DNA from: an uncultured Pseudomonadota bacterium
GTDB taxonomy: Bacteria; Pseudomonadota; Alphaproteobacteria; RF32; CAG-239
Reading direction: 5' to 3'
Length of the DNA stretch: 64,000 nt
Assembly: GCA_949292375.1 (NCBI GenBank)
Contig: CASEZG010000002.1
Span: 78,182 to 142,181, forward strand
Positions 20,853-41,693 of the stretch are shown here, one piece after another (the first letter of the stretch is position 1; each line of letters opens with the position of its first letter). The notes below the pieces were generated by a model. That model did not search any database and had not been told where the DNA came from. It was given only the letters and a program-made list of their open reading frames with translations. The translations under genes were made by a program, and so were the position numbers.

Positions 20853-20864
20853 ATTGCGTTTGGC

Positions 20865-22463: not shown

Positions 22464-22480
22464 TTCTCTTCGTAAACGAT

Positions 22481-22566: not shown

Positions 22567-22570
22567 ATCA

Positions 22571-22605
22571 AAAAAAAAGACCTGTTTTTTACAGGTCTTT
22601 TTTTT
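22571..22605. terminator. Bidirectional rho-independent terminator
   Basis: AAAAAAAAGACCTGT-ttttt-ACAGGTCTTTTTTTT immediately after the tRNA. Confidence 0.7.
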
Positions 22606-22948
22606 ATTCTATTACTTCAATAAAGTTTGAATATCGGCCCACCGATTCATTAGACTGCTTGAGCGCAACATCGCTCATTATCTTATTTTCATACAGCTCC
22701 TTAAAATAATCCGTCGGTTCCACGCTTAAAATTGAAGATGCTTCATCATAGCTCAATTCCAGCCCTATCAGCGGTGCCGTCACATCAAAGTTTATCATCT
22801 TTTCATAATATTCTTTGGCTATCTTAAACTTGGTGGTCAGCGGTGTATCCGTCCCCTCGTCTCTGATTTGCACATAACGTTTGGCCGTTTCAAAACGGAT
22901 ATAATTTTCTATCAGAATCGGAAAAAACTCTTCCAATGCTTCAGCCAT
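22604..22948 (-). CDS. Hypothetical protein (114 aa)
   Basis: ORF with a good RBS (GAGAGGAAATT-ATG) at the internal ATG 22948. No family recognised. Confidence 0.45.
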   Translation of the reverse strand: MAEALEEFFPILIENYIRFETAKRYVQIRDEGTDTPLTTKFKIAKEYYEKMINFDVTAPLIGLELSYDEASSILSVEPTDYFKELYENKIMSDVALKQSNESVGRYSNFIEVIE

Positions 22949-23099
22949 AATTTCCTCTCTTTTACATTTGACTTTTGTTTTTTCTACAGCCTGTAATAAC
23001 ATCTGTCAATCACTAATAAAATTGCCCAAAAAGTTTATATACAAGCAGCAAAAAATCTTGTAGCATCATCTTAAATTAAACATTTTCGGAGAAGTAAAT

Positions 23100-27537: not shown

Positions 27538-28560
27538 ATGAAACTTAAATTCGTTTTCGGGTGTTTTTTTTCTTTTTTGCTCTGCAATGAGGCTTTGGCG
27601 GTTGATGCCGGTTTGCGTTATATACAGACAAGAGGCTTGGTACGCTGTGGCACGGACCTCTCATCAAAAGCATATGCTTACAAAGATGAAAACGGCTATT
27701 GGCGCGGGATTGACGCAACTTTGTGCCGCGTGCTCGCCGTTGCCGTTTTGGGTGATAAAGACAAGATTGAGATGGTTAATATTCCGAGCAATCAGGTTTC
27801 AAAGTCTTTAGCAACTAACAAAATTGATATTATGCTCGGCGGAACACCCTATTCTGCCAGCAATGAGATTCAATCTCAGGCTGCTCCGATTGACGTTGTT
27901 TATTATGACAAGCAAATGTTTTTAGGTAGAAACGCAGACAAGGCAACCTCTATGGAAGATTATCGCGGAGAAACGGTTTGTGTCGTTAATAATTCTGATG
28001 ATCAATATAATTTAAGCGAGTATAATACGCGCTATAACCTTGATTTTAAGATTTTGCAATTTGCTAATTCGCAACGCGCCAAGGAAGCTTTTCTGCTTAA
28101 ACGCTGCTCCCTTTTGAGCGGGAACGCTCTGTTTCTGAATAATGTTTTGGATACGGTGAGCTCTAAGGATGAAACGACACAAATTTTACCTGAAGTTGTC
28201 AGTATTAAACCCGTTTATGCTTTTGCTGCCAAAGAAAATTATACTTGGAGAGTTTCGGCAAAATGGATATTGAATGCCTTAAAACTCGCAGAAAATATTG
28301 GGATTTCGTCAAATAATGTTGATATTTTTATCGGCATTAAAGATCCTTCATCAAAAAATTTGCTCGGCATTGATGAAAAACTTTGGAGTAAATTTAAGGT
28401 GCGCGACCCCAAATGGCTCAGAACGGCGTTAAAAGAGTTTGGAAACTATGGTGAAATATATGAAAAAAATTTGGGGAAAGAATCGCCTTTTAAGCTTGAA
28501 AGAGAACAAAACAAGCTTATGAAAGATGGCGGAATGATTATTCCCCAGCCGTTTCTCTAA
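27538..28560 (+). CDS. Periplasmic amino-acid ABC transporter substrate-binding protein (family 3 / AapJ-like)
   Basis: Signal peptide. RGLVRCGTD...GYWRGIDATLCRVLAVAVLGD...KIDIMLGGT is typical of SBP_bac_3. Confidence 0.7.
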   Translation: MKLKFVFGCFFSFLLCNEALAVDAGLRYIQTRGLVRCGTDLSSKAYAYKDENGYWRGIDATLCRVLAVAVLGDKDKIEMVNIPSNQVSKSLATNKIDIMLGGTPYSASNEIQSQAAPIDVVYYDKQMFLGRNADKATSMEDYRGETVCVVNNSDDQYNLSEYNTRYNLDFKILQFANSQRAKEAFLLKRCSLLSGNALFLNNVLDTVSSKDETTQILPEVVSIKPVYAFAAKENYTWRVSAKWILNALKLAENIGISSNNVDIFIGIKDPSSKNLLGIDEKLWSKFKVRDPKWLRTALKEFGNYGEIYEKNLGKESPFKLEREQNKLMKDGGMIIPQPFL

Positions 28561-29251
28561 ATTTGCTATTTAAATATTTAGCGGCGACAGACAACGTTTC
28601 TTCCGTGACACGGTGTCTGCCTCCTTCAACGACATAAGTTTCGACCAAGCACCCTAATTTTTGTAAATTTTTTCTAGAAAATTCCTGAGCCTCGAATCTA
28701 ACCAAATTGTCCTCATTGCCATGTATCAGCAATATGTCGGGCGTGCTTTGAGCATGTTTTGCCAAATATTTTGCGGGAGCAAGAATACCGCTGAAGCTTA
28801 TGCAACCCCCAATCTTTTTTTCTCGCATAAGCGATATATATATCGCCAACATTGCCCCTTGAGAAAAGCCGCATAGATACAAATCTTTGTCTTCCAATTG
28901 ATATTCTTCAAGACAATGATCTATGTATGGATTGACATAATCAAAGGCTTCTCGATATCCCGGAGCCATTTTTTCATAAAAAGAAACGCATTCTTTCAAT
29001 GTCGGAACGGTTTTGCGATCATCATTGGGGTCAAAACGATGCAGGGAATACCATTGTCTTTTGTTGGGGTGTATCTCGCACATAAACGGCGATTGTGGCA
29101 CATGAATAGCCACATCGTCCAGCTCATCTATCAGTGGAACAATTGTTTTATCTATTGCCTCAGACGAATCTATGTAGCCATGCAAAAATATGACCAACCT
29201 TTTAGGATAGCCTTTGATGTGTACGATTTCCTCTGTAATTAAATCCGGCAC
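28538..29251 (-). CDS. Phospholipase/carboxylesterase-family alpha/beta hydrolase
   Basis: RLVIFLHGY, nucleophile elbow GFSQGAM, and LLIHGNEDNLV fit the Abhydrolase_2 pattern. Confidence 0.75.
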   Translation of the reverse strand: MPDLITEEIVHIKGYPKRLVIFLHGYIDSSEAIDKTIVPLIDELDDVAIHVPQSPFMCEIHPNKRQWYSLHRFDPNDDRKTVPTLKECVSFYEKMAPGYREAFDYVNPYIDHCLEEYQLEDKDLYLCGFSQGAMLAIYISLMREKKIGGCISFSGILAPAKYLAKHAQSTPDILLIHGNEDNLVRFEAQEFSRKNLQKLGCLVETYVVEGGRHRVTEETLSVAAKYLNSKFRETAGE

Positions 29252-29321
29252 TATTTTAACCTTTTTTATCTTCTACTTGCTTAGTGCTTACTAAAAAAAA
29301 ATTAACATATGTTAAACATAC

Positions 29322-29360
29322 AAAAAAAATATCCCCCCGAAGTTTTATCTACGGGGGGAT
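29322..29360 (-). terminator. Strong rho-independent terminator closing the phage-like operon
   Basis: 9-bp stem ATCCCCCCG/CGGGGGGAT followed on the minus strand by 8 T residues. Confidence 0.7.
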
Positions 29361-29363
29361 AGA

Positions 29364-29558
29364 TTATTCTTTAGGATATTTTTCTTTAATATCCTGCCAT
29401 TTTTCAATAACATCTATTAATTCGTAAGGCAAATCTCCGCCATCTTGCAGTACCATATCAAATGCTTTGAGTATGGCATCCAATTGGTCGCTTAGAGGAA
29501 GTGTTTTTTCATATGCCTTGCGTCTTTTTTCTTGATATGTGAGTTTTCTTCTTGCCAT
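29364..29558 (-). CDS. Phage-cluster hypothetical protein (64 aa)
   Basis: Strong RBS (AAGGAG); last ORF before the terminator. Confidence 0.5.
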   Translation of the reverse strand: MARRKLTYQEKRRKAYEKTLPLSDQLDAILKAFDMVLQDGGDLPYELIDVIEKWQDIKEKYPKE

Positions 29559-29569
29559 GTTTTTCTCCT

Positions 29570-30091
29570 TTATTTCAATACTTTATTGGCAATTGAAAGT
29601 CCTGTATCCAGCAAGTTTTTACGATATTTGTTCTGTGTATTATTATATTCCTCTTCTTGGTTCATAAATTCTAAATTATCTTTTTCGATATCATCAAAAG
29701 CTTCATCAATTAGTCGGTTGTTTGCGGCATCTGCCGATGAAGATGATGAAATGCCCATACTTGCCATCCTTGCATGTCTTGTTGCCAACTGCTGCTCTAA
29801 AATATTTTTCTTTCGTTGCATATTGGCATATTGTAGCAATAGAGCATTTTTTTCTTGTCGTTTTGACGAATTTTTTAAGTCGACCATATTTTTTATATCC
29901 AGAGCAATTCCCATCGGACCTAGCATTGTGCTATATGTTAATCCTCCTTTGCCGGAAGATGCCGCTTTTGAGGCACCTAATGCCGTTGCTGCTCCCATAA
30001 GTCCGCTTGCTGTTCCTGCGGAACCTGCGGCTCCTGCCGTTCCTGCAGCTCCGGCTGTTCCGGCCAAAGCTGCTGCTGATAATCCTCCCAT
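29570..30091 (-). CDS. Phage-cluster protein with a Gly/Ala-rich N-terminus and coiled-coil C-terminus
   Basis: MGGLSAAALAGTAGAAGTAGAAGSAGTASGLMGAATALGASKAASSGKGG followed by a helical polar region. RBS AGGAGA before the ATG at 30091. Confidence 0.5.
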   Translation of the reverse strand: MGGLSAAALAGTAGAAGTAGAAGSAGTASGLMGAATALGASKAASSGKGGLTYSTMLGPMGIALDIKNMVDLKNSSKRQEKNALLLQYANMQRKKNILEQQLATRHARMASMGISSSSSADAANNRLIDEAFDDIEKDNLEFMNQEEEYNNTQNKYRKNLLDTGLSIANKVLK

Positions 30092-30107
30092 AATTTTCTC
30101 CTTTCTT

Positions 30108-32009
30108 TTATCCTTTAATTTTAACTTCCAAGACTGCTGATAGCAAAGTGAATGCCAAAGGTTCATCTGATTTGATGCTCCATAATGGTTTATCCATCTC
30201 TCTTATCCAACCCAAGGCGCGCAAACAAACATCTCCGCTATAAACACTCGGCGGAGCATCCAGAATTTCGTCTTTGAATAATCTTTTCAGAGGAACCTGC
30301 AAATAACCGTTACCCATATCTATACAAAAACTTCTGGTGTTTAAAATTCTGAATAAGCCGCTGATTACTCTTAGTGCTTGCGGAGAATATGGTTTTACGG
30401 CTTCGGCGACATAAGGTAATGGTTCTATGATATGCTCATAAGGAAGTCCTACTTCTACTTCGGAGGCTTCTTCCAAAAGACTGATACAACCATTTTCTAC
30501 CATATATTTGCCAACACTAAAGCCATCTGCCAATACAGAGACTTCACATCCTTCCAAATGCTCTAGTCCTGACCAATCTTTTTGAGACTGTTCTGCCTGA
30601 AGTTTGATAGCACAATCAGCATAAAATTCATTACTCATCTTTTCTAGATAGTACCCATTTGCTCTTTGCGTACAGAAGTAAACTTCGTTGGATATTACGG
30701 CAACGGATAAGAAATTTCCTTCCGTTTTTAATTTACTCCAAGCCGTTACTTCTTCTGTTCTATAACTTGTTAAGCAAGATACACTGCCATCTGCTAACAC
30801 GATATAGAGAACGCATTCATCTTTGCTGAAATCGTTATCCATAGGATTTTTTATAATATCTCCAGACATTAATGTTAGGTCTTTTGACTGATACGCTTGT
30901 TCCGTATCTGTATATAAAAATTCCCTTAATTGGTTTCCGCTTTGTGAAACAAAAACGGTAGCTCCATCAATCTGCTGCGGATATATGCTGCACTTGTCGT
31001 AACTTCCCGTACTGGTTTGTCGACTGAGCTGAATGCTGGTTGGGGTTAAAGGATCTCCGCTGACCATCCATTCTGCTCCGGTGGTAAAGACCAATAAGTG
31101 TCTTGCTGACACCAATGCCTTAATTGTATTTACCTGATCTGACAAAATACCAAACTCTATCGATTCATCATCCAATCCTGTTCCGATGTCAAAGTTAAAT
31201 AAATCTCCTGACTTTGAAAACCATAAACGGTTTGGTAAGCTTCTAGAACCACCAAAGACTAAACGATTCTGATGGAAAGTCACCGAATTTGGCCAACCGC
31301 GACGCGGTGAATATGCGGATTCCTCCCAATCTATGGTTTCAGAGCCTGAACTCAGCGACTTTTTTACGGTTCCCTTAACTGATGTTGAACTTACATATTC
31401 CGTAATTTCGATTTGCCCATTGCTGATATTAATCAGTGTTCCGACTGTTTCCGGTGTAAAAATCTCAGATGAAGATTTGACGGTAACTGTTCCGCTGCTT
31501 CCGCTTGAAGAAATTTTTACTTTATGATTGTAAAAATTATAGAATGGACAATAGATTTTTCCGTCTTTGGAATAAAATTCCATTTTTGCAATTTGCCAAT
31601 CTTCATTATCTCCACGGGTTATTTGTTGTGGTTCGACATCTGGATGAACAACTAATAACGTATCTGCACTCTGTGTATAATTTAAGCTGTTTAACTGAGC
31701 TTCCGTCCACGGAGACGTTAGTGTCTTGATGCATTCTCCTTCTTTATAAATCTTAATTTCACCTTCGCTGATGCAAATCAGATATATTTGTTCCGTGTTG
31801 AACTCAAACGGAATAAGTCTGGCCCTTTGGGGTAAAGTATCAATCAGAGCCAGACCTTTGCGACGAGAAACACCTCCCGTTGGTTGAATAATTACATTTT
31901 CTAGCGTACGCGCACCATTTTCAAATATACTTAAATCACCGCGACCATACAGATTTCTGCCAATGCATCCTGCCGTGAAATTTGTTTTAACTTGTCGCAA
32001 ATTACTCAT
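30108..32009 (-). CDS. Phage tail/nozzle-position protein (T7 gp12-like position; phage stabilisation-protein-like)
   Basis: 633 aa, second ORF after the capsid module, ATGA overlap with the upstream ORF. Assignment is by synteny and vague N-terminal resemblance only. Confidence 0.45.
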   Translation of the reverse strand: MSNLRQVKTNFTAGCIGRNLYGRGDLSIFENGARTLENVIIQPTGGVSRRKGLALIDTLPQRARLIPFEFNTEQIYLICISEGEIKIYKEGECIKTLTSPWTEAQLNSLNYTQSADTLLVVHPDVEPQQITRGDNEDWQIAKMEFYSKDGKIYCPFYNFYNHKVKISSSGSSGTVTVKSSSEIFTPETVGTLINISNGQIEITEYVSSTSVKGTVKKSLSSGSETIDWEESAYSPRRGWPNSVTFHQNRLVFGGSRSLPNRLWFSKSGDLFNFDIGTGLDDESIEFGILSDQVNTIKALVSARHLLVFTTGAEWMVSGDPLTPTSIQLSRQTSTGSYDKCSIYPQQIDGATVFVSQSGNQLREFLYTDTEQAYQSKDLTLMSGDIIKNPMDNDFSKDECVLYIVLADGSVSCLTSYRTEEVTAWSKLKTEGNFLSVAVISNEVYFCTQRANGYYLEKMSNEFYADCAIKLQAEQSQKDWSGLEHLEGCEVSVLADGFSVGKYMVENGCISLLEEASEVEVGLPYEHIIEPLPYVAEAVKPYSPQALRVISGLFRILNTRSFCIDMGNGYLQVPLKRLFKDEILDAPPSVYSGDVCLRALGWIREMDKPLWSIKSDEPLAFTLLSAVLEVKIKG

Positions 32010-32575
32010 TGTCTGGCCTCCACCAAAGTAAAGTCCTCAAAACGTGTCGGGGTTGACTGTTGAGCATCAATTAAACGGGTTCTTTTTTCCAATTCCTCAA
32101 AGTTTTTTTGCAAATAATCCGAGCGCGTTGTGCTTTCGGTCAACGGCAAACAAAACTCTGCGGCCAAGCGTGCAATCAATAACTCACAAAAATATGCCGG
32201 AAATAAACTTTCGTGCGGGCGAAAAATATATGTTAAGTTAACTTCCGGTGCATTTGTATGTAGGCGGTTTTCTATAATCCGATATACTATCCCTCTTCCG
32301 TTGCAACCGCTTCCCGCTGACAACACGCGTAAAAAGTCATTTGGAAGCTGATAGGCATAACTATAATCAGCCAAGGGTATATCCGCCAATCTGGGGAGGG
32401 ATTTTTGTCCGACAGCAAAACTCCATGGATATGAAGCAAGTAGACCATCTCTTATCATCGGATATAAATTTGCCGCTACCTCCGCTTCTGCCGTGCCGTC
32501 TAAAAATGAAGTAATACTTTCTGCTCCGATTTTTAACAAAGCATTTGAACATATGCTAATGTCGGTATAAGCCAT
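32006..32575 (-). CDS. Phage adaptor / tail-tubular-A-position protein (T7 gp11-like position)
   Basis: 189 aa from the ATG at 32575 (RBS GGAGA). Assignment is by gene order. Confidence 0.4.
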   Translation of the reverse strand: MAYTDISICSNALLKIGAESITSFLDGTAEAEVAANLYPMIRDGLLASYPWSFAVGQKSLPRLADIPLADYSYAYQLPNDFLRVLSAGSGCNGRGIVYRIIENRLHTNAPEVNLTYIFRPHESLFPAYFCELLIARLAAEFCLPLTESTTRSDYLQKNFEELEKRTRLIDAQQSTPTRFEDFTLVEARQ

Positions 32576-32588
32576 TTCGTTTCTCCAT

Positions 32589-32623
32589 AAAAAAATGGGA
32601 AGCCGCTTTTTACACGACTTCCC
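32589..32623 (-). terminator. Weak terminator-like hairpin after the capsid module
   Basis: GGGAAG-15 nt-CTTCCC followed by A+7T on the minus strand. The stem is short and the loop long, so the call is tentative. Confidence 0.3.
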
Positions 32624-32655
32624 GATTATCATTTGCTAATAATGCATTGGTTTAT

Positions 32656-32916
32656 TTAGGCAGCGGCAGCCTGCGCAATATCCGCAACAGTGACTGAACC
32701 TGCCGCAATATCCGTTACCGACAAAATTGCCGAAGCAACGGCTGCGGCATTATTGGCCACAACCAAAATCATATCTCCCTTGCGTGCAAAAGCGGAAACA
32801 TCATTGAAATATCCCTCTCCTTTTACGGTTTCTAAGGTATCTGGGGTTTGATAGTTCCAGAGAGTGAAACCATTCGCATAAGCCATTACGCTAAAGTTTT
32901 TTGAATTAAAAGCCAT
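32656..32916 (-). CDS. Phage-cluster hypothetical protein (86 aa, possible head decoration by position)
   Basis: ORF directly after the capsid gene, with an Ala-rich C-terminus. Confidence 0.45.
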   Translation of the reverse strand: MAFNSKNFSVMAYANGFTLWNYQTPDTLETVKGEGYFNDVSAFARKGDMILVVANNAAAVASAILSVTDIAAGSVTVADIAQAAAA

Positions 32917-32939
32917 TTTTTTATTCCTTTCTTATTTTA

Positions 32940-33770
32940 CTAAATTGAAGCTTCTTTACATTTGATGCGGATAACGCCTGTTCCGTCAATCAGACAAGCA
33001 CCTTGACTCATCATATTATTGACGAAATGTGCGGCATGGTCACCGTGCCAACTGATGTCTGATTTTACTTCCTGACCACAAGCATGTCCTACTGCCGTCT
33101 TATGGAAAATGAAGCAGTCACGATTGGTGCCGTCAAGCGGCAATCCTGTATGCATAATCCAGTTTATACCCAACCATTTGCGGCTTTCCGTACCCTTCAA
33201 GAACGGTAAGTTATCTCCGGCATAATCCGAATTTGAAAATTCCTGAATATTCAGCAAAGCATTCCACTGATGCGGACCAACCAAGCCAAAACGCTGACCA
33301 TCATCCGGAACATCGTTTTCATTCAACTTAGCAAAAGCATCCAAGATTTCTTTTTTGGTCATAACTTCGGCATAATCACCAACATCATTTTCCGACCCGA
33401 CCTGAGACAAGGCATTTATAATCAACTCGTCTGTCTTGCGGCCCAAAGCATAGGCTCCGGAGTTAGCAATAACCCGACGTTCGTCAATGCTCAATTTGAG
33501 CTCATCCAAAGCATCTACCCAATCGCCGGCATAGTAATCCTGCAGCTCGCATTCAACGGGAGAATGATCCAAGCTCATTACCGGAACCAAGCCATGGCGT
33601 GCTTTTTGAGAGGCAATGCCTTTGCCAACTTTTTGGAATACGGTTGAAGAGCCCTTTACACCATTTTTATAACGAACGGTATTTCTCAGCTTAGAACCAT
33701 TTTGCTGGTAGCAAAGATGAACGTCTGCTTCAAATTGTTTGATAAAAGATTCACTTACTTGTGTTGACAT
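32940..33770 (-). CDS. Phage major capsid protein
   Basis: 276 aa, directly after the scaffold gene. The N-terminus SFIKQFEADVHLCYQQNGSKLRNTV resembles capsid proteins of BPP-1-like podoviruses as I recall them. Confidence 0.65.
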   Translation of the reverse strand: MSTQVSESFIKQFEADVHLCYQQNGSKLRNTVRYKNGVKGSSTVFQKVGKGIASQKARHGLVPVMSLDHSPVECELQDYYAGDWVDALDELKLSIDERRVIANSGAYALGRKTDELIINALSQVGSENDVGDYAEVMTKKEILDAFAKLNENDVPDDGQRFGLVGPHQWNALLNIQEFSNSDYAGDNLPFLKGTESRKWLGINWIMHTGLPLDGTNRDCFIFHKTAVGHACGQEVKSDISWHGDHAAHFVNNMMSQGACLIDGTGVIRIKCKEASI

Positions 33771-33814
33771 TATTTTTTCTCCATAAAATTAAAAAAAAGA
33801 TTTTTGTTTTGGTT

Positions 33815-33846
33815 AAAAAAAATCCTGAGTTCTTATTTCTCAGGAT
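33815..33846 (-). terminator. Terminator-like hairpin spanning the scaffold stop codon, upstream of the capsid gene
   Basis: ATCCTGAG-9 nt-CTCAGGAT followed by 8 T on the minus strand. Confidence 0.4.
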
Positions 33847-34528
33847 AAAGTTTTTCAAAGCCTTTGGTGATTTTGGCGATATAGGCCTTATCTTTGTCGC
33901 GCCAATAACGCGGATCTTCCATCATCTTGCGCAAATTTTCTTCGCTTAAGTCCTCGCCGAGATCTCTATCTTTGCCTAAAGACGGCTCGTTTGATGACAT
34001 CATTTTATACAAGGCAATGACACCGTCTGCCGTTGACCCCAAGGCTTCATATACATCCGTTTGCAGATTTCTTTTTGCCCAAACGGAAATCTGGCGACAA
34101 ATCTCACTGAATTTTTCCTCAGAACCAAAATAGCGTTTAAGTTTATCCAGTTGTCTTTCCGCTTCATAATCTGACGCAAGACTGTCTAAGACCGGAATAA
34201 CTCTTTCGTTGGCTAAATCATAAACCAACTGAGCCTGATCATTGGTAAAGCCTTTTTCATAAAAGCGTTTGAAAATTTCATCATCTCTGTCAAGCAAAGG
34301 ATGCGGAAAATTAAGTTCATATTTGTCATAACTTTCCGGCATATTGCGTTTATGAATCTCAACCAAATTATCATCGCGAGAAGCCATATAATTATAATCT
34401 TCAATCAATGCCTCAAGGTTTATCTGTCCGGTTTTCTCATTCCAGAATTTATCCGGAAGTCCGGCCGGTTTGCCCATATTGGCGGAAGGCGATTTTTCAA
34501 TCAAATTTCCTTCAATGTGTTTGTTCAT
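33833..34528 (-). CDS. Phage scaffolding / capsid assembly protein
   Basis: 231-aa helical, charged protein between the portal and capsid genes. LPDKFWNEKTGQINLEALIEDYNYM is scaffold-like. Confidence 0.55.
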   Translation of the reverse strand: MNKHIEGNLIEKSPSANMGKPAGLPDKFWNEKTGQINLEALIEDYNYMASRDDNLVEIHKRNMPESYDKYELNFPHPLLDRDDEIFKRFYEKGFTNDQAQLVYDLANERVIPVLDSLASDYEAERQLDKLKRYFGSEEKFSEICRQISVWAKRNLQTDVYEALGSTADGVIALYKMMSSNEPSLGKDRDLGEDLSEENLRKMMEDPRYWRDKDKAYIAKITKGFEKLYPEK

Positions 34529-34555
34529 TATTTTTCCTTTCAAAAAAAGAAGTTG

Positions 34556-34780
34556 TTAAAATTTGTTACCAGAGAGCGACAAGATACAACTTACTAAATG
34601 CCGCTGGCCTTCCAGATGTCTTAAGGCATCGGAAGAGCTATCCGGCCCGAGATATCGCTCTATAGTAATTTTTCTTAGATGGGAAAGGACTATTCGCCCT
34701 TCTCTGCTTGCAAAACACCTGACATAAGCATTGCGGATTTCCTCATCGCTCATGCCTTTGGTATCATAAAGTTCCGACAT
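34556..34780 (-). CDS. Small phage protein (Bbp19-like, tentative)
   Basis: 74 aa. DEEIRNAYVRCFASREGRIVLSHLR...LEGQRHLVSCIL resembles the Bbp19 family as I remember it. Overlaps the portal 3' end by 17 nt. Confidence 0.35.
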   Translation of the reverse strand: MSELYDTKGMSDEEIRNAYVRCFASREGRIVLSHLRKITIERYLGPDSSSDALRHLEGQRHLVSCILSLSGNKF

Positions 34781-36323
34781 TTTGCGTTGTCTCCCCGGTT
34801 ACCAGAGAAGCCAGCTCTGCCAAACCAGTTTCTGTATCCGGTTTGTTTTCAACAATTAATGATGCCGGAACATTCAGGGTATGTCCGAGCCATTTGGCGG
34901 CCTCAAACATATTTACGGCTGCTTGCCCATCTGCACCGAGCATTGCCGCCTGAGTAATCCATTCGGTTACATTGCTGACATCCTTTCTTGCCTGAGACAT
35001 TGCCAAAGGGGATTTATACTGAAGGTCAACAATCTTGCCGTCCAGATCAAAATTCATAACATCTCCGCGCCTTCTTAAGATGCAAAATGCTCTTTTAAGC
35101 AACGGGGTTAAAAGTTCTGATTGAAGTCGGCCGAAGCTTGCGCCCAAAATGCGCGCAATTTCTGCCGAGCGTTCTAAAACCTCTGTCGCGGTCATTGAGG
35201 GTGTATTGATTTCGGCCAACCTATCCGCCAACAAAGCATGATTGATTCTTTTGCGCAAATCTTCCAAAACAAGCTGCGACACATCAAATTTTCCGGGGGC
35301 TTCCAAAGCTGTAAGCCCCTTTGAGCCTACGGCTTTGGGAATTATGGCTCCGGGAACCAATTTAATATTTGCCGGATTGAGCACGCCGTCATCATCAGCT
35401 TGCCAAATGCCTGTTACAGAAATGGAAGCATTTTTCAAAATCAGCTCCACAACTTTGTTAGCGGTTTTAATGTCTGGCAATGCTTTCATTACCGGCGAAC
35501 GCCCATAAATTTCTCCGGGAGCTTTCAGCCAGCGAAAGTTGATAAACGGTGAGGTTTCGAATACTCCTTCTCTCAAAATAAAGCCGGAATTATTCCCAAC
35601 ATCACTATCCCAGATAAATGCCGTATAATCATAACCGCAAGAACCGCAATTGCCGTTGCGCGGCACCACCGCTTCTATCAAACGGACTTTATAATCCGGC
35701 TCGTCTTCGCTTTTCTTTAAAAAATCTGCCGGAACTTCGCTTTCCGGAAAACGTTCTCTGATTCCGCCCAAGTTAATACGCGAGCATCTGAAGGTGGTAT
35801 CAATTTTTCCGGATGCGCTTTCTTCAATGGCTATTTCTCTTAATGGAACCGCATAAAACCGAAATGCCGAAGCTTCGCCCAAAGGTGCTTCTTCAAACAT
35901 TAGGCAAGCCGTACCTGCCGTTACTAAATCCAAATAACACTGATGAATTTCTACTGCAAAATTAGAGTGCTCAAAATTTTGAAGCATAATATCCGTTGTT
36001 TTTTCCAAAACAGGTGCTACTTGTGTTTTTTCGGCTTCCGTAAGTTCGTTTCCCGATTTTAAGCCAAACCATTTTGCCCAAGCCGGTGTTAACTCCGCCA
36101 ACAAAGATGAAGCTAATTGATCTACTGCATCTGGAGCTGTTCCATCGTACAAATGCAAATTATTTTTTGCACCATAGTTTTCGTACAAACCTTCTGAACT
36201 TACATTTTCTCGTTGCGGAAATGCATATTCATAACACTCGCGCCAGTGTTCCTCCCAGTTATTTTTCTTCTCTGAGGCTTTCTGATAACGTGCCACCAAT
36301 TTTTCAAGTTTGTCGTTTTCCAT
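34764..36323 (-). CDS. Phage portal (head-to-tail connector, podovirus/T7 gp8 type)
   Basis: 519 aa. The N-terminus LEKLVARYQKASEKKNNWEEHWRECYEYAFPQRE is typical of the podoviral head-tail connector family. Confidence 0.8.
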   Translation of the reverse strand: MENDKLEKLVARYQKASEKKNNWEEHWRECYEYAFPQRENVSSEGLYENYGAKNNLHLYDGTAPDAVDQLASSLLAELTPAWAKWFGLKSGNELTEAEKTQVAPVLEKTTDIMLQNFEHSNFAVEIHQCYLDLVTAGTACLMFEEAPLGEASAFRFYAVPLREIAIEESASGKIDTTFRCSRINLGGIRERFPESEVPADFLKKSEDEPDYKVRLIEAVVPRNGNCGSCGYDYTAFIWDSDVGNNSGFILREGVFETSPFINFRWLKAPGEIYGRSPVMKALPDIKTANKVVELILKNASISVTGIWQADDDGVLNPANIKLVPGAIIPKAVGSKGLTALEAPGKFDVSQLVLEDLRKRINHALLADRLAEINTPSMTATEVLERSAEIARILGASFGRLQSELLTPLLKRAFCILRRRGDVMNFDLDGKIVDLQYKSPLAMSQARKDVSNVTEWITQAAMLGADGQAAVNMFEAAKWLGHTLNVPASLIVENKPDTETGLAELASLVTGETTQNVGTL

Positions 36324-36325
36324 TT

Positions 36326-36523
36326 TTATTCTCCGAGAAGTTTTTTACGATCCGGTTGCGTATCTTCTTTATTGTTATTTTCTTCCTCCTTAATTCCCGT
36401 ATAAGAAGTTTTGACCAAACTATCATAACCTCGATGTTTACGCGCCAGTTCTTCTTTTCTTTTACGGTCTTGTTCCATTGCCTGCAAAATTAGAAGTTTG
36501 CGAGATGGTTTAAATCCTCCCAT
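36326..36523 (-). CDS. Phage-cluster small basic protein (65 aa)
   Basis: ORF packed against the portal start. No family recognised. Confidence 0.35.
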   Translation of the reverse strand: MGGFKPSRKLLILQAMEQDRKRKEELARKHRGYDSLVKTSYTGIKEEENNNKEDTQPDRKKLLGE

Positions 36524-36550
36524 TGTTTGTTCCTTTCATTTATGTTGAAG

Positions 36551-36868
36551 TTATTTTTTTGTTTTAAATTTTGAATTTTTTGAAGATGACAAAGAATCGC
36601 ATTTTACAAAAGCAATACCCAGGACACCGAGTGCCACCCCCCATAAAGATGATGTATCAACCATTGCCATAATAATTTCGGGGGCCTTGGGGTTTCCGCC
36701 CACGGCAACCCAACAAATTGTGCTCATAACCATAAGCCAAGCAACAGACACGGACCAGCCAAATGCAGCTTGCCATAATGGTTTGCTCGTTTTTCCTTTT
36801 TTACTTTTGATATTAATTTGATGCACAAACTTAAAAGGCAGGAAAAAAGCATTTATCAATTTGTTCAT
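36551..36868 (-). CDS. Phage membrane protein, holin candidate (2 TM)
   Basis: Two hydrophobic segments (FGWSVSVAWLMVMSTICWVAV; LWGVALGVLGIAFV) and a basic tail. Adjacent to the endolysin. Confidence 0.45.
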   Translation of the reverse strand: MNKLINAFFLPFKFVHQINIKSKKGKTSKPLWQAAFGWSVSVAWLMVMSTICWVAVGGNPKAPEIIMAMVDTSSLWGVALGVLGIAFVKCDSLSSSKNSKFKTKK

Positions 36869-36870
36869 TT

Positions 36871-37287
36871 CTACCCCTCAATATCGTTATAAAAAATATG
36901 CGCTCCTATCTCGGCGCAAGGAATTTTGCCGACTGACCATTTAGGGCGCAGATTTCTGGTGTGATAATGTGTTGCTCCTTGCGTTTGGTCTTCTAACAAT
37001 CCTGAAACAGCCCTCATTGCTATTCTTTTACAAATGCAAAAACCTATGTCTGAATCATCAACTTTCTTTATGATTTTGCTGTTTGGGTCGTCTGTGTTCC
37101 AGCAAGAAAACTGTTTGGGAAACTGACAAACATCCGCTATCGTATTTCCCCACCAATAACGCCCTTTCTTTTTGGCTAAAGCAACCCTATTTAAAACAAC
37201 AGAGGCGATTGCTTCCTGTCCGGAAATGCTCTCGCCTCTTGCTTCGCCGTAAATGGTTCGGGCTAAAATATCCGCATCTTTATTCAT
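36871..37287 (-). CDS. Cell-wall hydrolase, SleB family (endolysin)
   Basis: LARTIYGEARGES...ASVVLNRV...FSCWN...ATHYH are Hydrolase_2/SleB motifs. No signal peptide. Confidence 0.85.
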   Translation of the reverse strand: MNKDADILARTIYGEARGESISGQEAIASVVLNRVALAKKKGRYWWGNTIADVCQFPKQFSCWNTDDPNSKIIKKVDDSDIGFCICKRIAMRAVSGLLEDQTQGATHYHTRNLRPKWSVGKIPCAEIGAHIFYNDIEG

Positions 37288-37541
37288 CTTTTTCCCCTTC
37301 CCACATTATCCAATTTCTTTTCTATGCGCAGGAGATGATCGGTTATTCTGTTTTCAACGTCCTTCAGATAGTTTACCGATACATAGTTACGGGCAACGTG
37401 CAGCTTAAATTCTGCCAAAGCATCTTTACAAAAACTGATTGAATTTTCACAATCTTTCTTTTGCTTAAAGATGATTTTGAATAAGGCTGCCAAGAGCGGA
37501 ATCTCTATCATCGTTACCCAATTAAAGGTATCCAAAAACAT
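37284..37541 (-). CDS. Phage membrane protein (N-terminal TM plus coiled coil; holin/antiholin/spanin candidate)
   Basis: WVTMIEIPLLAALFKIIF is a TM segment, followed by a helical region. 4-nt overlap with the endolysin gene. Confidence 0.4.
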   Translation of the reverse strand: MFLDTFNWVTMIEIPLLAALFKIIFKQKKDCENSISFCKDALAEFKLHVARNYVSVNYLKDVENRITDHLLRIEKKLDNVGRGKR

Positions 37542-37553
37542 TGTTATTTCTCC

Positions 37554-39038
37554 TTATAAAGTAAAGTTCGTTTCTGCAGAAAATTGTTTTGAGTTTCCTT
37601 GCCATCTGGCTGACGATAATGGCGTATTGACTATGATTGAGCCTATGCGTATGGGTTCGGAAGCCAAGCAACCTGCAACCGCATCTAAGGCATCATCATG
37701 AGAGGTTCCGTCTACACTCCATTCGCGCATTTCCTCAATAAACGGTGTTTGCCAGATTTTGCGATGAACATGCAGTGCACGTTCCGCCAACAAAACCTCA
37801 AAAGCTTCTAAAATTCGCTGTTGTTTGTTGTCTTTTGAATAAGCCTCTAAAACAGCGGCTCTAATCCGACGTTCTTTTAAGACTTGCTTCAAAATCCCAG
37901 GCAAAAATCTTCCGATACCGTTTACTTCTACCCGAACGGAAGACAAATGATTACGCACTAAAAAATCTGCCACCTTACCGCATTGTAAAGAGGCCGCATT
38001 ATCCGCATTTTCCGAAGGAACCTTGATATACTCAATATCATGCAGCCAGAATTTTCCGTCTTCATCGCTAAAGACGCAAGCAATGACACTATTATCTCCT
38101 TTATCTTTTGCGGCAAAAGACGGGTCCCACCAGCAAGAGGCTGAAAGCATTCTTTTACCACCAATTTTTAAAATCTCTTGCTCGTTGGCAAAAGAGATTT
38201 CAACTTCTCCGTCATAAGAACAAAGTCTTTCCGGAGATAATGTACTGTCCCTGAAGTTTACGGGTTGTAACATCATCTGTGAAAGAAATTTGTTCTCACC
38301 CGAACGAATCCTTACTGAGGCAATTTTTTCTTCCGAAAATCTTTCCGGCCAAGCACTTTTGCCTTCCGCATTCAGAATTGGTAATACCAATTTTGTAAAA
38401 CCTTGCAAAAATGGTTCCGTATCCGGCTTATTTAAATCTGTTTCCGTCTGATAAATTGTATAATAACTGTGTGGCGTTCCGATATATAATTGCATGCCGT
38501 TCGGCGTCAAAATATAATCAAGTTCATTTAGCTTTTCTCTTAATTCCTGACGTTTGAGCGGTGTGTCGCAATTTTTTGGAACCTCAACATCATCACAAAT
38601 TATTAAATCTGCACGCAAGCCCGTAATGTTTGCCCCCAAGCCTTTTGCCAACATCGACGGGTCGCGAAGCTCTAGTGGGCGGCAAACCGTAAATTGATCT
38701 GACGCCCATTGGTCAAGTCTCGGCGGTTTCAGTTTCTTGGTTAAAGGATGTTGCTCTATAATACGCTTTACATTTCGTACCATTTTTTTTGCCAAAGAAT
38801 GATCAGCCGCCATTACCAAAATTCGGATTGAGGGATTGCTATATAAGCCCCAAGCACAAAAAAGACCGACAATGGTTGACTTGCCCGAGTTTCTAAAAGC
38901 CATCAATAAGGCTTGTCTATCCCCTTTATCATGCCATAACTCTGATAACCATTTTGCCATCTTCTTTTGATGCTTCGGAACTCTTAATCCTTGTAGCCGA
39001 AACCAGATGTATACAAACTCAAAAAAATCAATCTTCAT
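37554..39038 (-). CDS. terL: Phage terminase large subunit
   Basis: Walker A FRNSGKST and Walker B ADLIICDD. The C-terminal nuclease-like region includes DDALDAVAG. Confidence 0.85.
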   Translation of the reverse strand: MKIDFFEFVYIWFRLQGLRVPKHQKKMAKWLSELWHDKGDRQALLMAFRNSGKSTIVGLFCAWGLYSNPSIRILVMAADHSLAKKMVRNVKRIIEQHPLTKKLKPPRLDQWASDQFTVCRPLELRDPSMLAKGLGANITGLRADLIICDDVEVPKNCDTPLKRQELREKLNELDYILTPNGMQLYIGTPHSYYTIYQTETDLNKPDTEPFLQGFTKLVLPILNAEGKSAWPERFSEEKIASVRIRSGENKFLSQMMLQPVNFRDSTLSPERLCSYDGEVEISFANEQEILKIGGKRMLSASCWWDPSFAAKDKGDNSVIACVFSDEDGKFWLHDIEYIKVPSENADNAASLQCGKVADFLVRNHLSSVRVEVNGIGRFLPGILKQVLKERRIRAAVLEAYSKDNKQQRILEAFEVLLAERALHVHRKIWQTPFIEEMREWSVDGTSHDDALDAVAGCLASEPIRIGSIIVNTPLSSARWQGNSKQFSAETNFTL

Positions 39039-39339
39039 CTTCAGAACTCAGTTCGTTTTGGGCTTCCTGCAAAAATGATATTAGTTGTTTGTTTTCATTT
39101 TGAGGCTCCGTATCCGTATCTTTGGCATCTGTCCACTCAGCAAGTTTTAGAAGTGTTTCGGCATGAACAACCGCTGACTTACAAGCCGAATGATGCGCAC
39201 TGAAACCCTTGGCATCTTCCGGTATCGGCTGTTCGGAAAAATTTTCGTAACTATCTATTACCTCAGAAATTTTTTCGGGCAGCGTTTTGCGTAGTCTACT
39301 TTTCAGAGCCTTTAGTGTTTTTATTTTTTTTGTTGTCAT
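39028..39339 (-). CDS. Terminase small subunit candidate (by position)
   Basis: 103 aa from the ATG at 39339, overlapping the terL start by 11 nt. The track's longer start at 39390 would place a terminator hairpin inside the coding sequence. Confidence 0.4.
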   Translation of the reverse strand: MTTKKIKTLKALKSRLRKTLPEKISEVIDSYENFSEQPIPEDAKGFSAHHSACKSAVVHAETLLKLAEWTDAKDTDTEPQNENKQLISFLQEAQNELSSEDED

Positions 39340-39355
39340 TCTGATTAAACCCCAT

Positions 39356-39388
39356 AAAAAAAGACCTCTTGTACGGAGGTCTGTTTTC
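39356..39388 (-). terminator. Rho-independent terminator upstream of the packaging/structural genes
   Basis: The minus strand reads AGACCTC-cgtacaa-GAGGTCT followed by TTTTTTT. Confidence 0.6.
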
Positions 39389-39458
39389 ATTGCTCAGTTT
39401 ATTTTAGATACACTACTAGCAAGTGATGTTTAGGGTGTAACATAAAAAAAATCATTTG

Positions 39459-39848
39459 TCAAGAGTTTTTTCCTACAACTTTTAATTTTTTATACAACTG
39501 ATATGGTGTTATTATACTCGCAGAATGAATCCCCAAAATTCTCTTTACCATCTCAACACAAGTAAAAAATCCTAACGGAGCACATTTTTGAGGTGCGTTT
39601 TTAATCTTTACGGCGCAAGCTAAGCTTTCGCCTCTACCGACTAAAAATTCTTCTATAGTTATAGATTTTTCATATCTGTGCAAACTTATCATAACTTGAT
39701 TGGAATATGGATTTATTTCTAACCATAAGTGACCTTTTTGCATTTTTTGCAAGATATAACAATGCCTGAAGCCGCTTTTGAGCAACCTGAGCCACCATAA
39801 TCCCGTTGTATTTGTAAAAACAACATATGTGCTTTTTATTTTCTCCAT
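39459..39848 (-). CDS. Phage-cluster hypothetical protein (129 aa)
   Basis: ORF with WWLRLLKSGFRHCYIL and FTCVEMVKRILGI. No family recognised. Confidence 0.45.
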   Translation of the reverse strand: MEKIKSTYVVFTNTTGLWWLRLLKSGFRHCYILQKMQKGHLWLEINPYSNQVMISLHRYEKSITIEEFLVGRGESLACAVKIKNAPQKCAPLGFFTCVEMVKRILGIHSASIITPYQLYKKLKVVGKNS

Positions 39849-39849
39849 C

Positions 39850-40200
39850 TTAGATAATTCCCTTTATTTTCAAATAGATATCAAATACATATATTCCATT
39901 TTCCCAAAGCCTTACTTCGCTTGCTTTGGCTCTTCTATCATAATATGGCGGCGTGCCAATCCTTCCCCACTTGAGCATTACTCGCAGAATCCGATTGCTT
40001 ATTTCCCCTTTGGCTCGCATCCTTTTCAAGATTCTTTCGACATCTCCTATTTCCAGACACCTCAACTTCCCCGAATAATCTGTTTTTGAGCGAATGCCGT
40101 CTCCTCTGGCTTCTAACGATTGACAAAACCAAAACCATACTTCTTCGGCATTATCAAAAGGCTCATAATTTTCCCTCATATTTTTAGTCCCCCAGTACAC
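39850..40200 (-). CDS. Phage-cluster hypothetical protein (116 aa), possible DNA-binding regulator
   Basis: First ORF of the leftward operon, divergent from the repressor. AEEVWFWFCQ...ISNRILRVMLKWGRIG suggests an HTH, which is weak evidence. Confidence 0.4.
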   Translation of the reverse strand: MYWGTKNMRENYEPFDNAEEVWFWFCQSLEARGDGIRSKTDYSGKLRCLEIGDVERILKRMRAKGEISNRILRVMLKWGRIGTPPYYDRRAKASEVRLWENGIYVFDIYLKIKGII

Positions 40201-40335
40201 AACTTAATAAAATGTTAACTATTGAAGTTATATATTAAGTTGTAGGATTTTCAACATAAAAAAAGAATTGATTCCTATGCGAAATTGTTTTATCATCTCC
40301 TTATAAGTTGAAATCTTTAGATTTTGAGGTGCATT

Positions 40336-40956
40336 ATGAAATATGAACAAGTTTGGGAAGCTGTTGATAAGTTGGCTAAAATTAATGGGCTATCCCCCTC
40401 AGGACTGGCTAAAAAAGCAGGACTAGACTCTACTACATTCAACAAAAGCAAAAGGACGAGACCTGATGGAAAAAAAAGATGGCCATCGCTTGACAGCTTA
40501 AATAAAATTATTGATGTATGCAATATCAGCTTTGATGAGTTCTTTGCTCTTGTTTCCGATGATGATAGTGATAAGCACTTGCACTCTATTCCTTATGTAT
40601 CATATTCAGATTTATCTGAAGGAAAAGCTTCTATATCTGCCAATTTTTCAAACAACAAATGGCAAAAAATCCAATTCCCTGATGCTAGAGATAATTTATA
40701 TGCTTTGGATCTAAATACAAATATTTTAGAGCCTTTTTATAGAAACGGAACTCTTCTTATTTTGTCTCAAGAATCTGAAATAAGAAGTGGTGACAGAGTT
40801 GTTGTCTTTATGAAAAACAATGCTATTGTCGTTGCCGAATTTATTAGAAGAACAGCAGCAACAATTGAAACAAAAGAGATTATCGGCTCTGAAAAAAAAT
40901 CAATTAATGTTGATGATATCCACCTTATTCATAGAATTGTTTGGGCTAGTCAGTAA
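40336..40956 (+). CDS. CI/LexA-like HTH regulator with a C-terminal S24-peptidase-like domain
   Basis: N-terminal HTH (GLSPSGLAKKAGLDSTTFNKSKR), C-terminal S24 fold (SGDRVVVFM...RIVWASQ). ATG at 40336 with RBS GAGGTG. Confidence 0.8.
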   Translation: MKYEQVWEAVDKLAKINGLSPSGLAKKAGLDSTTFNKSKRTRPDGKKRWPSLDSLNKIIDVCNISFDEFFALVSDDDSDKHLHSIPYVSYSDLSEGKASISANFSNNKWQKIQFPDARDNLYALDLNTNILEPFYRNGTLLILSQESEIRSGDRVVVFMKNNAIVVAEFIRRTAATIETKEIIGSEKKSINVDDIHLIHRIVWASQ

Positions 40957-40967
40957 AGGAATATATA

Positions 40968-41198
40968 ATGAATCTACATAAGTTTTATTTGCAACTAAGC
41001 ACTGAATCTATTGATATTATGGAAAAAAAGTTTGATTTCGTTCCTGACTTATCAAACGCAGCCGCGGCAAAGTCTTTAGATAATATTTGCAGGCTTAAAA
41101 CTCAGGAGATTTCTTGCTTGCGCAACCTTGATGCAAACACATCTGCTTCCGAGAAATCTCTCAGAGAATATCGTGATTATGCTACAAAGCTTTTATAA
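40968..41198 (+). CDS. Hypothetical protein (76 aa)
   Basis: ORF only; no recognisable motif. Confidence 0.3.
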   Translation: MNLHKFYLQLSTESIDIMEKKFDFVPDLSNAAAAKSLDNICRLKTQEISCLRNLDANTSASEKSLREYRDYATKLL

Positions 41199-41693
41199 AT
41201 TATCTTTGGCTCTTTGTTCTTTGATAAAAATCTCTATATCTTCCAGCGTTTGTTCGGGAGACTTTTGAAAATTAATGTGCCATTTATCTTCGATTTGGCA
41301 TTGTTTTGCTTTTCCATCATAAAAACAAAATGGTGTGCTGAATCCTTCGCTGTACGACAAGGAATCGTCTATATGCAAATCTATATGTTCTTTTTCGCAA
41401 TATTGCGCTTTGGCACTATTCCATAAATCATCATCAACCTTAAATTCGCCATTTTCAAAAAATTTTACACAACCTTTGGCATCATAAAAATCTAAGATTG
41501 CAAAAATCGTCGTATACGGAATCTGCCATTGTCTTAAATATTCTTCTATTGTTGCCTTGGGACCACCGCTTATGACATGAAGCTCCATTTTTCTTTTTAA
41601 TGCTTCTGCAGCAAATTTTTTAAAATATTCCGGATTGCTCGTTATAACCCCGTGAAAATCCAAACCAATTTTTATTTTAACGTATTCTGACAT
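41193..41693 (-). CDS. HAD-like hydrolase-fold protein (tentative)
   Basis: KIGLDFHGVIT resembles HAD motif I with the second Asp replaced. Overlaps the AsmA-like 3' end. Confidence 0.4.
   Translation of the reverse strand: MSEYVKIKIGLDFHGVITSNPEYFKKFAAEALKRKMELHVISGGPKATIEEYLRQWQIPYTTIFAILDFYDAKGCVKFFENGEFKVDDDLWNSAKAQYCEKEHIDLHIDDSLSYSEGFSTPFCFYDGKAKQCQIEDKWHINFQKSPEQTLEDIEIFIKEQRAKDNL

Follow-up and report, generated by a model that had tools for sequence, protein, structure and literature searches.

The gene transfer agents (GTAs) classified as viriforms belong to the RcGTA-like, BaGTA and BhGTA/VSH-1 families, with Dd1 and VTA as further GTAs. Long non-contractile tails are found in those that have been clearly described, and known GTAs are quoted as holding 4, 7.5 and 14 kb. 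RcGTA combines a 49-nm tail with a small, T=3/oblate head and ~4 kb of DNA (PMC9662315). In BaGTA, a compact capsid/packaging operon (bgtA-K) is gated by a terminator and an antiterminator, and the particles have been reported to be tailless or short-tailed in B. henselae, a morphology that is disputed. Antitermination control has been reported for CcGTA as well as for BaGTA. The present analysis concerns a cluster of phage T7-like virion genes at positions 29322-40956 of a 64-kb stretch of DNA (the window) from an uncultured alphaproteobacterium of the GTDB lineage RF32; CAG-239 (assembly GCA_949292375.1, contig CASEZG010000002.1, positions 78,182 to 142,181). This cluster probably descends from a T7-like (LME-1- or pelagiphage-like) temperate podovirus, a remnant of which has been domesticated, fixed in the chromosome and kept as a GTA-like particle-producing system, or viriform. 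Coordinates are window positions unless a related locus is named, the operon lies on the minus strand, and labels L001-L180 designate the related loci that were compared, mostly metagenome-assembled genome (MAG) or IMG/VR contigs.

As far as sequence can tell, the system has the character of a GTA or viriform, since it is a chromosomal, phage-derived structural cluster without replication, integration or excision functions, inherited vertically and held under purifying selection. In these respects it is like the alphaproteobacterial RcGTA and CcGTA (Rhodogtaviriformidae), and further likenesses are that lysis genes are included in or associated with RcGTA-type clusters, that some parts may lie elsewhere, that late-gene antitermination, described for CcGTA, is proposed here, and that a relative of the cluster (L016) uses a protein of the PF11351 GTA_holin_3TM family. 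It is nevertheless not RcGTA-like because the gene families differ. The virion module is that of T7, with a gp8-type portal, a gp9-type scaffold, a gp11 adaptor, a gp12 nozzle and a gp19-type terminase, its capsid protein is nearest to one that forms a T=7 head, and none of the RcGTA structural-gene families was matched in any scan of the cluster. BaGTA (Bartogtaviriformidae) is likewise an independently domesticated alphaproteobacterial GTA with a gated compact operon, but it is coupled to a run-off replication module, has a 1863-bp portal gene beside a 1344-bp gene for the large terminase subunit (TerL) and possesses fibre genes, a distinction drawn from published gene sizes and gene order only. 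Homologous capsid, portal, scaffold, adaptor and nozzle genes are found in the same order in Legionella phage LME-1, Pelagibacter phage Hodr, the IMG/VR contig L109 and the marine phage Carin-1. However, these are real phages of ~31-35 kb, and L109 has a helicase-loader gene, a gp15-sized open reading frame (ORF), a gp16-like gene and a fibre gene, whereas the module in the window is without these and is chromosomally fixed. In the literature searched, outside which many subscription papers lie, neither a GTA of podovirus or T7-like type nor the occurrence of this cluster in Azospirillum, Thalassospira or gut Alphaproteobacteria was found to be described.

Between 40200 and 29364 the minus strand carries 17 intact ORFs with almost no intergenic space, overlapping one another at 32006-32009, 37284-37287, 39028-39038 and 34764-34780, just as a first-pass annotation made from the sequence had listed them (Table 1); the true starts of several probably lie a few codons inside the longest ORF. 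Profile searches agree with that annotation on TerL, whose Walker A (GKST) and Walker B (LIICDD) motifs can be read in the sequence, on the SleB endolysin, the gp8-type portal, the scaffold and the capsid, and they identify the ORFs that it had merely placed in the gp11 and gp12 positions as the adaptor (phrog_394) and the nozzle (phrog_376, PF25675). The Gly/Ala-rich protein that it recorded is there too, and can now be regarded as a candidate gp14-like internal virion protein on family-level support. Two of its statements had to be revised: the first two ORFs (g1 and g2) are not terS-like, the candidate for the small terminase subunit (TerS) being the third (39028-39390), and the cluster amounts to about one third, not one quarter, of a podovirus genome, when measured against its free relatives of 31-35 kb. 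Both flanks are, as had been supposed, ordinary chromosomal DNA with housekeeping genes (Abhydrolase_2, a solute-binding protein, MlaC, GltX and CysS to the left; a YhdP/AsmA-like protein, a hydrolase, PrfB, PBP1a and AmiC to the right). The remaining scanned genes of the window are all housekeeping, including those for RNase E, glycogen enzymes and FlgK, the GC content and GC skew of the module are those of its neighbourhood, and the sole tRNA gene lies ~7 kb from the cluster. The absence of an integrase, of replication genes and of a tail fibre, which had also been proposed, was upheld by family scans of all ORFs of the cluster. No replication-like gene was found in the 64-kb window, a repeat search over 28000-42500 for a pair of att sites returned short imperfect chance repeats only, and a megablast comparison of the whole module with 50,697 phage records gave zero matches. 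Lacking an integrase, att sites and replication genes, and having a repressor-like protein devoid of the Ala-Gly, Ser and Lys residues discussed below, the locus does not have the makings of a functional temperate prophage.

The argument for a maintained system comes from comparison with other genomes, nearly all of them MAGs, some of which are implausibly labelled (Lactobacillaceae, Muribaculaceae), probably through mistakes in binning or naming. A capsid-alignment scan of one genome per GTDB species found relatives of the capsid in at least 580 species genomes. The ~20 closest species, uncultured gut Alphaproteobacteria with Candidatus Scatocola among them, share almost the full set of 17 genes and its order, and most of them share the flanks as well. 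The capsid of the window itself also occurs on metagenome contigs with an identical context, and another species, whose capsid is 89% identical and which occurs widely in gut metagenomes, shares the genes, their order and the flanks. Of the contigs of 35-40 kb with close capsids, which had been suspected of being complete phages, those of P0001 are chromosomal fragments with the same flanks. Across 16 taxa, protein distances computed pairwise for seven module genes correlate closely with those for three flanking host genes, themselves in physical linkage with the module (r = 0.946, Mantel p = 2e-4), and the same clades are recovered, the module being more conserved than the flanks (distances between clades of ~0.28-0.34 vs 0.40-0.55). 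When module genes are compared with those of the two nearest species, the ratio of non-synonymous to synonymous substitutions (dN/dS) is approximately 0.01-0.22, for a dS of 0.5-2, as against 0.02-0.12 for the flanks; among the seven large genes in 19 species, 130 of 133 instances are intact in one frame.

Fixed site, co-divergence and dN/dS together exclude a recently truncated prophage, one of the two possibilities between which the first-pass annotation had hesitated, and speak for the other, a maintained module: the same module lies at the same site in ~20 species with congruent distances, no close relative contains a full-length prophage, no ORF is truncated with respect to phage profiles, and no integrase or att pair came to light. 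It is true that a functionless prophage remnant, recently truncated or neutrally decaying, would account for a cluster one third the size of related phages, for the disappearance of several virion genes and for the sporadic possible frameshifts in two MAG loci. Such a remnant is nevertheless extremely improbable and already contradicted by the comparative data, for the same compact set is found, with dN/dS values of 0.01-0.22, in lineages whose flanking proteins are ~50% different, its regulatory DNA is conserved, its terminators covary, it is kept in genomes of 0.8-0.9 Mb, and none of the close relatives carries a longer version.

The wider family includes clusters that have been rearranged. 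In Candidatus Enterousia and related rumen and gut MAGs the capsid is ~65% identical and TerL is split exactly at the linker between ATPase and nuclease, giving two intact ORFs (L017, L036-L097 and many IMG/VR loci; in L036, at 13749-14342 and 17735-18550) that retain the Walker A, Walker B and nuclease motifs. The two halves lie 3.3-3.5 kb apart in 70 loci and are separated by a gap of only ~300 bp in L139 and L141; in L017, three opposite-strand genes, including dnaB, stand between them. Since Enterousia genomes are only 0.8-0.9 Mb in size (PMC8035907), the retention of the cluster in them is telling. Among isolates, the IMG/VR 'proviruses' that contain the cluster are from many Azospirillum and Thalassospira species, in which, as in L016, the order is regulator, g1, g2, portal, Bbp19, scaffold, capsid, g13, adaptor, nozzle, gp14-like, fibre/tailspike, TerL, g5 and SleB. 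In L016, moreover, the fibre and the TerS candidate are separated by a lysozyme and a holin, in a segment (15461-16611 of that locus) encoding a DUF6127 protein, a phage lysozyme and the PF11351 protein; that this family is named after GTA holins points to lysis modules common to unrelated GTA-like elements. In the Azospirillum-type locus L167, a host-type GGDEF/EAL/PAS/HAMP signalling gene (5697-8084) is inserted between the scaffold and capsid genes. In L146, L148, L157 and L175 the same two genes are also set apart, by a comparable gap. No integrase was found in the annotated example loci.

These interleaved host genes bear on the idea that the cluster could be a helper-dependent satellite or a split prophage, still horizontally mobile, whose fibres, ejection proteins and replication/excision functions would be provided by a helper phage or by genes elsewhere. 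Capsid-forming satellites are a known kind: those of the cf-PICI type (capsid-forming phage-inducible chromosomal islands) are compact islands that encode their own capsid, portal and terminase and lack part of the virion, which the cluster in the window resembles. A fibre, gp15 and gp16 are exactly what a related helper would supply, and a CI-like regulator has been retained. However, satellites possess an integrase, att sites, a replication module and strain-to-strain mobility, and none of these is seen here: the window has no integrase, att pair or replication initiator, and the insertion site is identical, with co-divergence of module and flanking host genes extending over deep divergence. 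Moreover, host genes embedded in the cluster, the GGDEF/EAL gene in L167 and dnaB in Enterousia, are incompatible with a self-excising, self-packaging unit, which makes a satellite or split prophage very unlikely.

What the chromosomal clusters have lost becomes apparent when they are compared with free phages. Hodr (34 kb) has a homologous lysin, portal, Bbp19-like protein, scaffold, capsid, adaptor and nozzle, with ORFs of 159, 783, 1247 and 349 amino acids (aa) 3' of the nozzle gene, and in L109 (35 kb, capsid 63% identical) the sequence of products is gp14-like, 748 aa, gp16-like (phrog_342), fibre, DnaD-like helicase loader. In the phage relatives, ORFs of 748-783 aa and 1036-1247 aa occupy the gp15 and gp16 positions. 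Neither is present in any chromosomal-family locus examined and, as the first-pass annotation had observed, the cluster in the window contains nothing of that size, so that of the three proteins of a T7-like internal core (gp14, gp15 and gp16) a candidate exists for gp14 only. A fibre with the N-terminal domain of T7 gp17 (PF03906) is encoded in L016, in Azospirillum, in Thalassospira and in ~24 Enterousia-type loci; a search with the N-terminal domain of the L016 fibre gave 11 matches, none of which could be assigned to the organism of the window. A capsid 79% identical to that of the window is encoded on a 5-kb scaffold from human faeces in Mexico, entered as an unverified 'Bacteriophage sp.' (MT838907.1, L180), and if this scaffold came from a virus-like-particle preparation it would hint that module DNA may reach particles.

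The divergently transcribed regulator, with an N-terminal Cro/C1 helix-turn-helix and an S24-like C-terminal domain, has changed in this lineage. When it is aligned with E. coli LexA and lambda cI, L-S, I and A replace Ala-Gly, Ser119 and Lys156 in the window protein. Ala-Gly, Ser and Lys are retained in the regulators of Azospirillum, Thalassospira and L016 (L146, L148, L167, L176 and L016), while in the gut clade to which the window belongs the cleavage site and the Ser have been lost, the Lys also having gone in the window, L018, L098 and two others. This suggests that an SOS-cleavable repressor became non-cleavable in this lineage, and the induction signal has probably changed in the gut clade. 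With self-cleavage lost, another trigger would be needed, possibly an infecting phage. This consideration favours domestication for a role other than transfer, either as an anti-phage decoy or abortive system that poisons the assembly or packaging of T7-like phages, or as programmed lysis with DNA release, the particles being a by-product or non-infective. Such a role is also in keeping with the existence of free phages of the same capsid family and with the absence of a fibre, gp15 and gp16 from the lineage, owing to which the encoded particles may fail to bind or inject; purifying selection, for its part, proves that there is a function and not which one. However, the whole packaging, tail-tube and gp14-like set is intact under strong constraint, beyond what interference or lysis would need, and the clusters of L016, Azospirillum and Thalassospira keep a fibre/tailspike, which argues for particles that bind cells. 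A non-transfer role is therefore unlikely, although less so than the other alternatives, and a GTA-like system is preferred.

How such a GTA-like system could be controlled is suggested by two conserved stretches of non-coding DNA. The first, upstream of g1, is almost unchanged in 17 species although the flanking proteins differ by 45-50%. It contains a 7-bp inverted repeat (TAGGAAT-N20-ATCCTA, 40243-40277), the putative operator, which overlaps a putative promoter TTGAAA-N16-TATAAC (-35 TTGAAA at 40249-40254, -10-like TATATA at 40227-40234), and a GTTAAC..TTAAG box at 40200-40219. The second, which we term the gate, comprises an invariant TCTTGACA at 39453-39464 that overlaps the g2 stop codon, a conserved 26-nt leader box ATCACTTGCTAGTAGTGTATCTAAAA at 39402-39427, and an intrinsic terminator hairpin followed by a run of seven T at 39356-39382, after which come a ribosome-binding site and the start of the TerS candidate. 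The -35 element and the leader box are conserved in related loci, and the hairpin and T-run are found in the same place in the window and in 16 of the 16 related loci examined, with differing stem sequences. A hairpin with a T-run also lies 3' of g2 in L016, L099 and Thalassospira L176 (read by eye from the printed sequence), the promoter-leader-terminator unit was absent from the phage relatives L109 and L130, and a search of the gate against Rfam at permissive E-values gave nothing credible. The arrangement is the layout of lambdoid late control.

From these elements the following working can be proposed. The CI-like regulator, which would not be self-cleavable, would keep the operator-overlapped promoter shut, and its relief would allow the early genes g1 and g2 to be expressed. 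A second, constitutive-looking promoter immediately after g2 would read into the leader and terminator, and antitermination by some factor would let transcription through into the late operon, leading to the synthesis of TerS, TerL, lysis proteins, portal, scaffold, capsid, adaptor, nozzle and the gp14-like protein. As there are no replication or excision genes, chromosomal DNA would be the sole substrate of the terminase, and the heads would be filled with host DNA. The SleB lysin and the membrane proteins would then lyse the cell and release the particles. These would bring DNA to the periplasm of a recipient through a gp14-like outer-membrane channel, and only that far since the trans-envelope core formed by gp15 and gp16 is missing; the uptake machinery of the recipient would finish entry, as in RcGTA.

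Several points weigh against this interpretation. By homology with the T=7 LME-1 head, the particle may hold 30-40 kb, which exceeds the 11-kb cluster and would set it apart from classical GTAs, whose heads hold less DNA than it takes to encode them. The T7 terminase is sequence-specific and acts on concatemers, and because the TerL of the cluster is T7 gp19-like, random packaging is not a given. The candidate antiterminator, g2, shows no Q-like fold. In the window, and within 10 kb of the module in every Scatocola-like locus, there is no tail fibre or receptor-binding protein. The dS values are close to saturation, which makes the dN/dS ratios approximate, dN still being far below dS everywhere. 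The adaptor of L032 (11207-11766) and the nozzle of L035 each align as two pieces and may be frameshifted, whether through MAG assembly errors or through genuine decay in single lineages. Finally, the argument is built from genes, and the particles, their cargo and transfer are predictions.

Table 1. Features of the cluster and its control DNA, in the order in which the operon is transcribed
Feature	Position	Strand	Evidence or remark
Small ORF, 76 aa	40968..41198	+	Downstream of the regulator; cluster membership uncertain
Divergent CI/LexA-like regulator	40324..40956	+	PF00717, PF13443, phrog_4 (transcriptional repressor)
Putative early promoter/operator for g1-g2	40200..40277	-	Near-invariant in 17 species
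g1, first early gene, 109 aa from ATG 40179	39850..40179	-	Family conservation
g2, second early gene, 129 aa	39459..39848	-	Family conservation
Putative gate before the late operon	39356..39464	-	Between g2 and the TerS candidate
TerS candidate (g3)	39028..39390	-	phrog_31793 E 2e-45 over residues 18-120
TerL, T7 gp19-like ATPase and RNaseH-like nuclease, intact	37554..39038	-	phrog_38 E 5e-83, PF17289
Small membrane protein	37284..37541	-	phrog_29007 E 3e-41, weak phrog_462
SleB-type cell-wall hydrolase (endolysin)	36871..37287	-	PF07486 E 2.5e-20, phrog_938
Small protein with two transmembrane segments, holin candidate	36551..36868	-	Hydrophobic segments read from the sequence
Small conserved protein, C-terminal K-x-LLGE motif	36326..36523	-	Directly upstream of the portal
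Portal, T7 gp8 type	34764..36323	-	PF12236 E 3e-133, profile 3-489 of 489
Bbp19-like small protein	34556..34780	-	PF25181 E 4e-14
Scaffold, T7 gp9 type	33833..34543	-	PF05396 E 6e-16, profile 8-186 of 188
Major capsid protein, full length	32940..33770	-	PF19821 E 3e-75, phrog_3437
Small protein between capsid and adaptor, decoration-gene position	32656..32916	-	phrog_18004 E 7e-26
Internal hairpin and T-run	32597..32623	-	Terminator scan; 3' of capsid and decoration genes
Adaptor / tubular protein A, T7 gp11 type	32006..32632	-	phrog_394 E 1e-49, profile 2-189 of 190
Nozzle / tubular protein B, T7 gp12 type	30108..32009	-	phrog_376 E 7e-159, PF25675
Putative gp14-like internal virion protein, 173 aa from ATG 30091	29570..30091	-	Family-level matches
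Acidic 64-aa protein, last operon gene	29364..29558	-	Weak PHROG matches
Strong intrinsic terminator closing the operon	29322..29360	-	Hairpin 29331-29360 read directly

Among the head and tail proteins, the capsid is the most conserved of the module (64-89% identity across the family, dN/dS 0.01), those of the portal, TerL and nozzle having identities of ~27-77%, far below it. Its nearest solved relative is that of LME-1 (9eg4, E 1e-27), a phage with a T=7 head of ~60 nm and a short tail (PMC12407071), and even the capsids of L109 and L130, which are free phage-like contigs, share 62-63% identity with it. Constraint on this protein is unusually strong. The dN/dS of the portal gene is 0.02 and that of the TerL gene 0.03, and the ATPase half of TerL resembles that of T7 gp19 (4bij, E 8e-24). 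The small protein encoded directly upstream of the portal has an L016 homologue in the same place with the same C-terminus, and related ORFs in Azospirillum-type loci; from its location, corresponding to that of T7 gp6.7/7.3, it is possibly a minor virion protein. That the protein between capsid and adaptor may be a decoration protein is likewise suggested by position, the order in the LME-1 accession being major capsid protein, decoration protein, adaptor and nozzle. The adaptor probably starts at ATG 32575, its counterpart in L001 being called as 189 aa, and the nozzle resembles the tail nozzle of PDB entry 8ck1 (E 7e-63) as well as the LME-1 tail entry 9efk.

The assignment of the protein 3' of the nozzle gene, which has a Gly/Ala-rich, hydrophobic N-terminus, is weaker. 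A homologue is found in this position in every locus with a full-length nozzle match, 7 of 20 family members match PF24072 T7_gp14 (best E 8e-5), and the member in L016 matches phrog_418 (internal virion protein). The protein of the window gave no direct family match of its own, and a profile of the post-nozzle family found nothing among PDB sequences. Taken together, these matches hint at a gp14-like internal virion protein. The acidic 64-aa protein encoded by the last gene is 59-92% identical where present, is relocated in L034 and was not detected in the L020-L022/L044 group. The operon ends, as the first-pass annotation had indicated, in a strong terminator, ATCCCCCCG-loop-CGGGGGGAT followed by a run of eight T. 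The internal hairpin 3' of the capsid and decoration genes has similar counterparts, with other stem sequences, in 13 of 22 related loci, and might be an attenuator comparable to T-phi of T7.

For the early genes and small ORFs there is less to go by, NCBIfam naming none of the small ORFs of the cluster and no GTA family among them. g1 is 25-63% identical in the chromosomal-family loci where it was detected, which do not include those of the Enterousia type, had zero matches in Pfam, PHROG and NCBIfam, and yielded a poor single-sequence structure model with which a fold search matched nothing; it is possibly a regulator. g2, kept across the family and in the phage relatives L109 and L130, is phage-derived. 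Its AlphaFold2 model (pLDDT 87) matched uncharacterized phage proteins only in BFVD (TM-score 0.66-0.78) and nothing in PDB. Its lambda Q-like position before the promoter, leader and terminator made it a candidate for a Q-like antiterminator, an idea left unsupported by the lack of a Q-like fold and of a PDB match. The TerS candidate probably starts at an internal ATG (39339), giving a protein of 103 aa, and overlaps the start of TerL by 11 nt; it is with its phrog_31793 match, its position and this coupling that it is tentatively named a small terminase. The ORFs on both sides of the lysin gene, which encode one and two hydrophobic segments, respectively, are presumed to be lysis accessories. 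The first, with an N-terminal transmembrane segment and a coiled coil, is 99-100% identical in the two nearest species and could be spanin- or holin-like. The second, the holin candidate, matched no family and evolves fast (dN/dS 0.14-0.22).

Around the cluster, a counterpart of 76-85 aa to the ORF downstream of the regulator is called at the same position in L001, L007 and L015, and in relatives the protein is 33-66% identical by tblastn. The 171-aa ORF that follows (41193-41708, phrog_13623) overlaps the end of yhdP and adjoins yhdP in related species too; by eye its sequence resembles a HAD phosphatase, and it probably belongs to the host and not to the module. Farther away, positions 19000-23000 of the window have a low GC content (0.34-0.38 vs ~0.42), with a tetratricopeptide repeat (TPR)-methyltransferase gene (20865-22391) beside tRNA-Leu(CAA) (22481-22566), and may be a small acquired island that has no relation to the module.

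If true, a vertically inherited T7-like particle system would represent an independent, podovirus-derived origin of GTAs. A bolder proposal, which we put forward tentatively and hold to be somewhat doubtful as a whole, is that an ancient and previously unrecognized podovirus-derived GTA family spans Rhodospirillales-type and gut Alphaproteobacteria (Azospirillum, Thalassospira, Candidatus Scatocola and Candidatus Enterousia, in at least 580 species genomes), in which T=7 heads would move 30-40 kb, gp15 and gp16 would have been shed so that entry goes no further than the periplasm, a conserved promoter-leader-terminator unit would serve as the switch, and a split terminase would work in Enterousia. 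A load of 30-40 kb per particle would be several times the capacities of known GTAs. The scale is that of hundreds of species, including plant-growth-promoting Azospirillum, marine Thalassospira and abundant uncultured gut Alphaproteobacteria with genomes of less than 1 Mb. Azospirillum particles with random 10-kb host DNA, known from earlier work cited in PMC3899980, are ascribed there to RcGTA-like genes; the present cluster is an alternative candidate for their source. Azospirillum is cultured and has long been studied, and gene knockouts are expected to be feasible. More generally, the absence of gp15 and gp16 would amount to a natural experiment on which parts a short-tailed particle requires for DNA delivery, and the gate, along with a CI-type protease domain that appears to have been inactivated, would illustrate the rewiring of a phage switch so that the host controls it.

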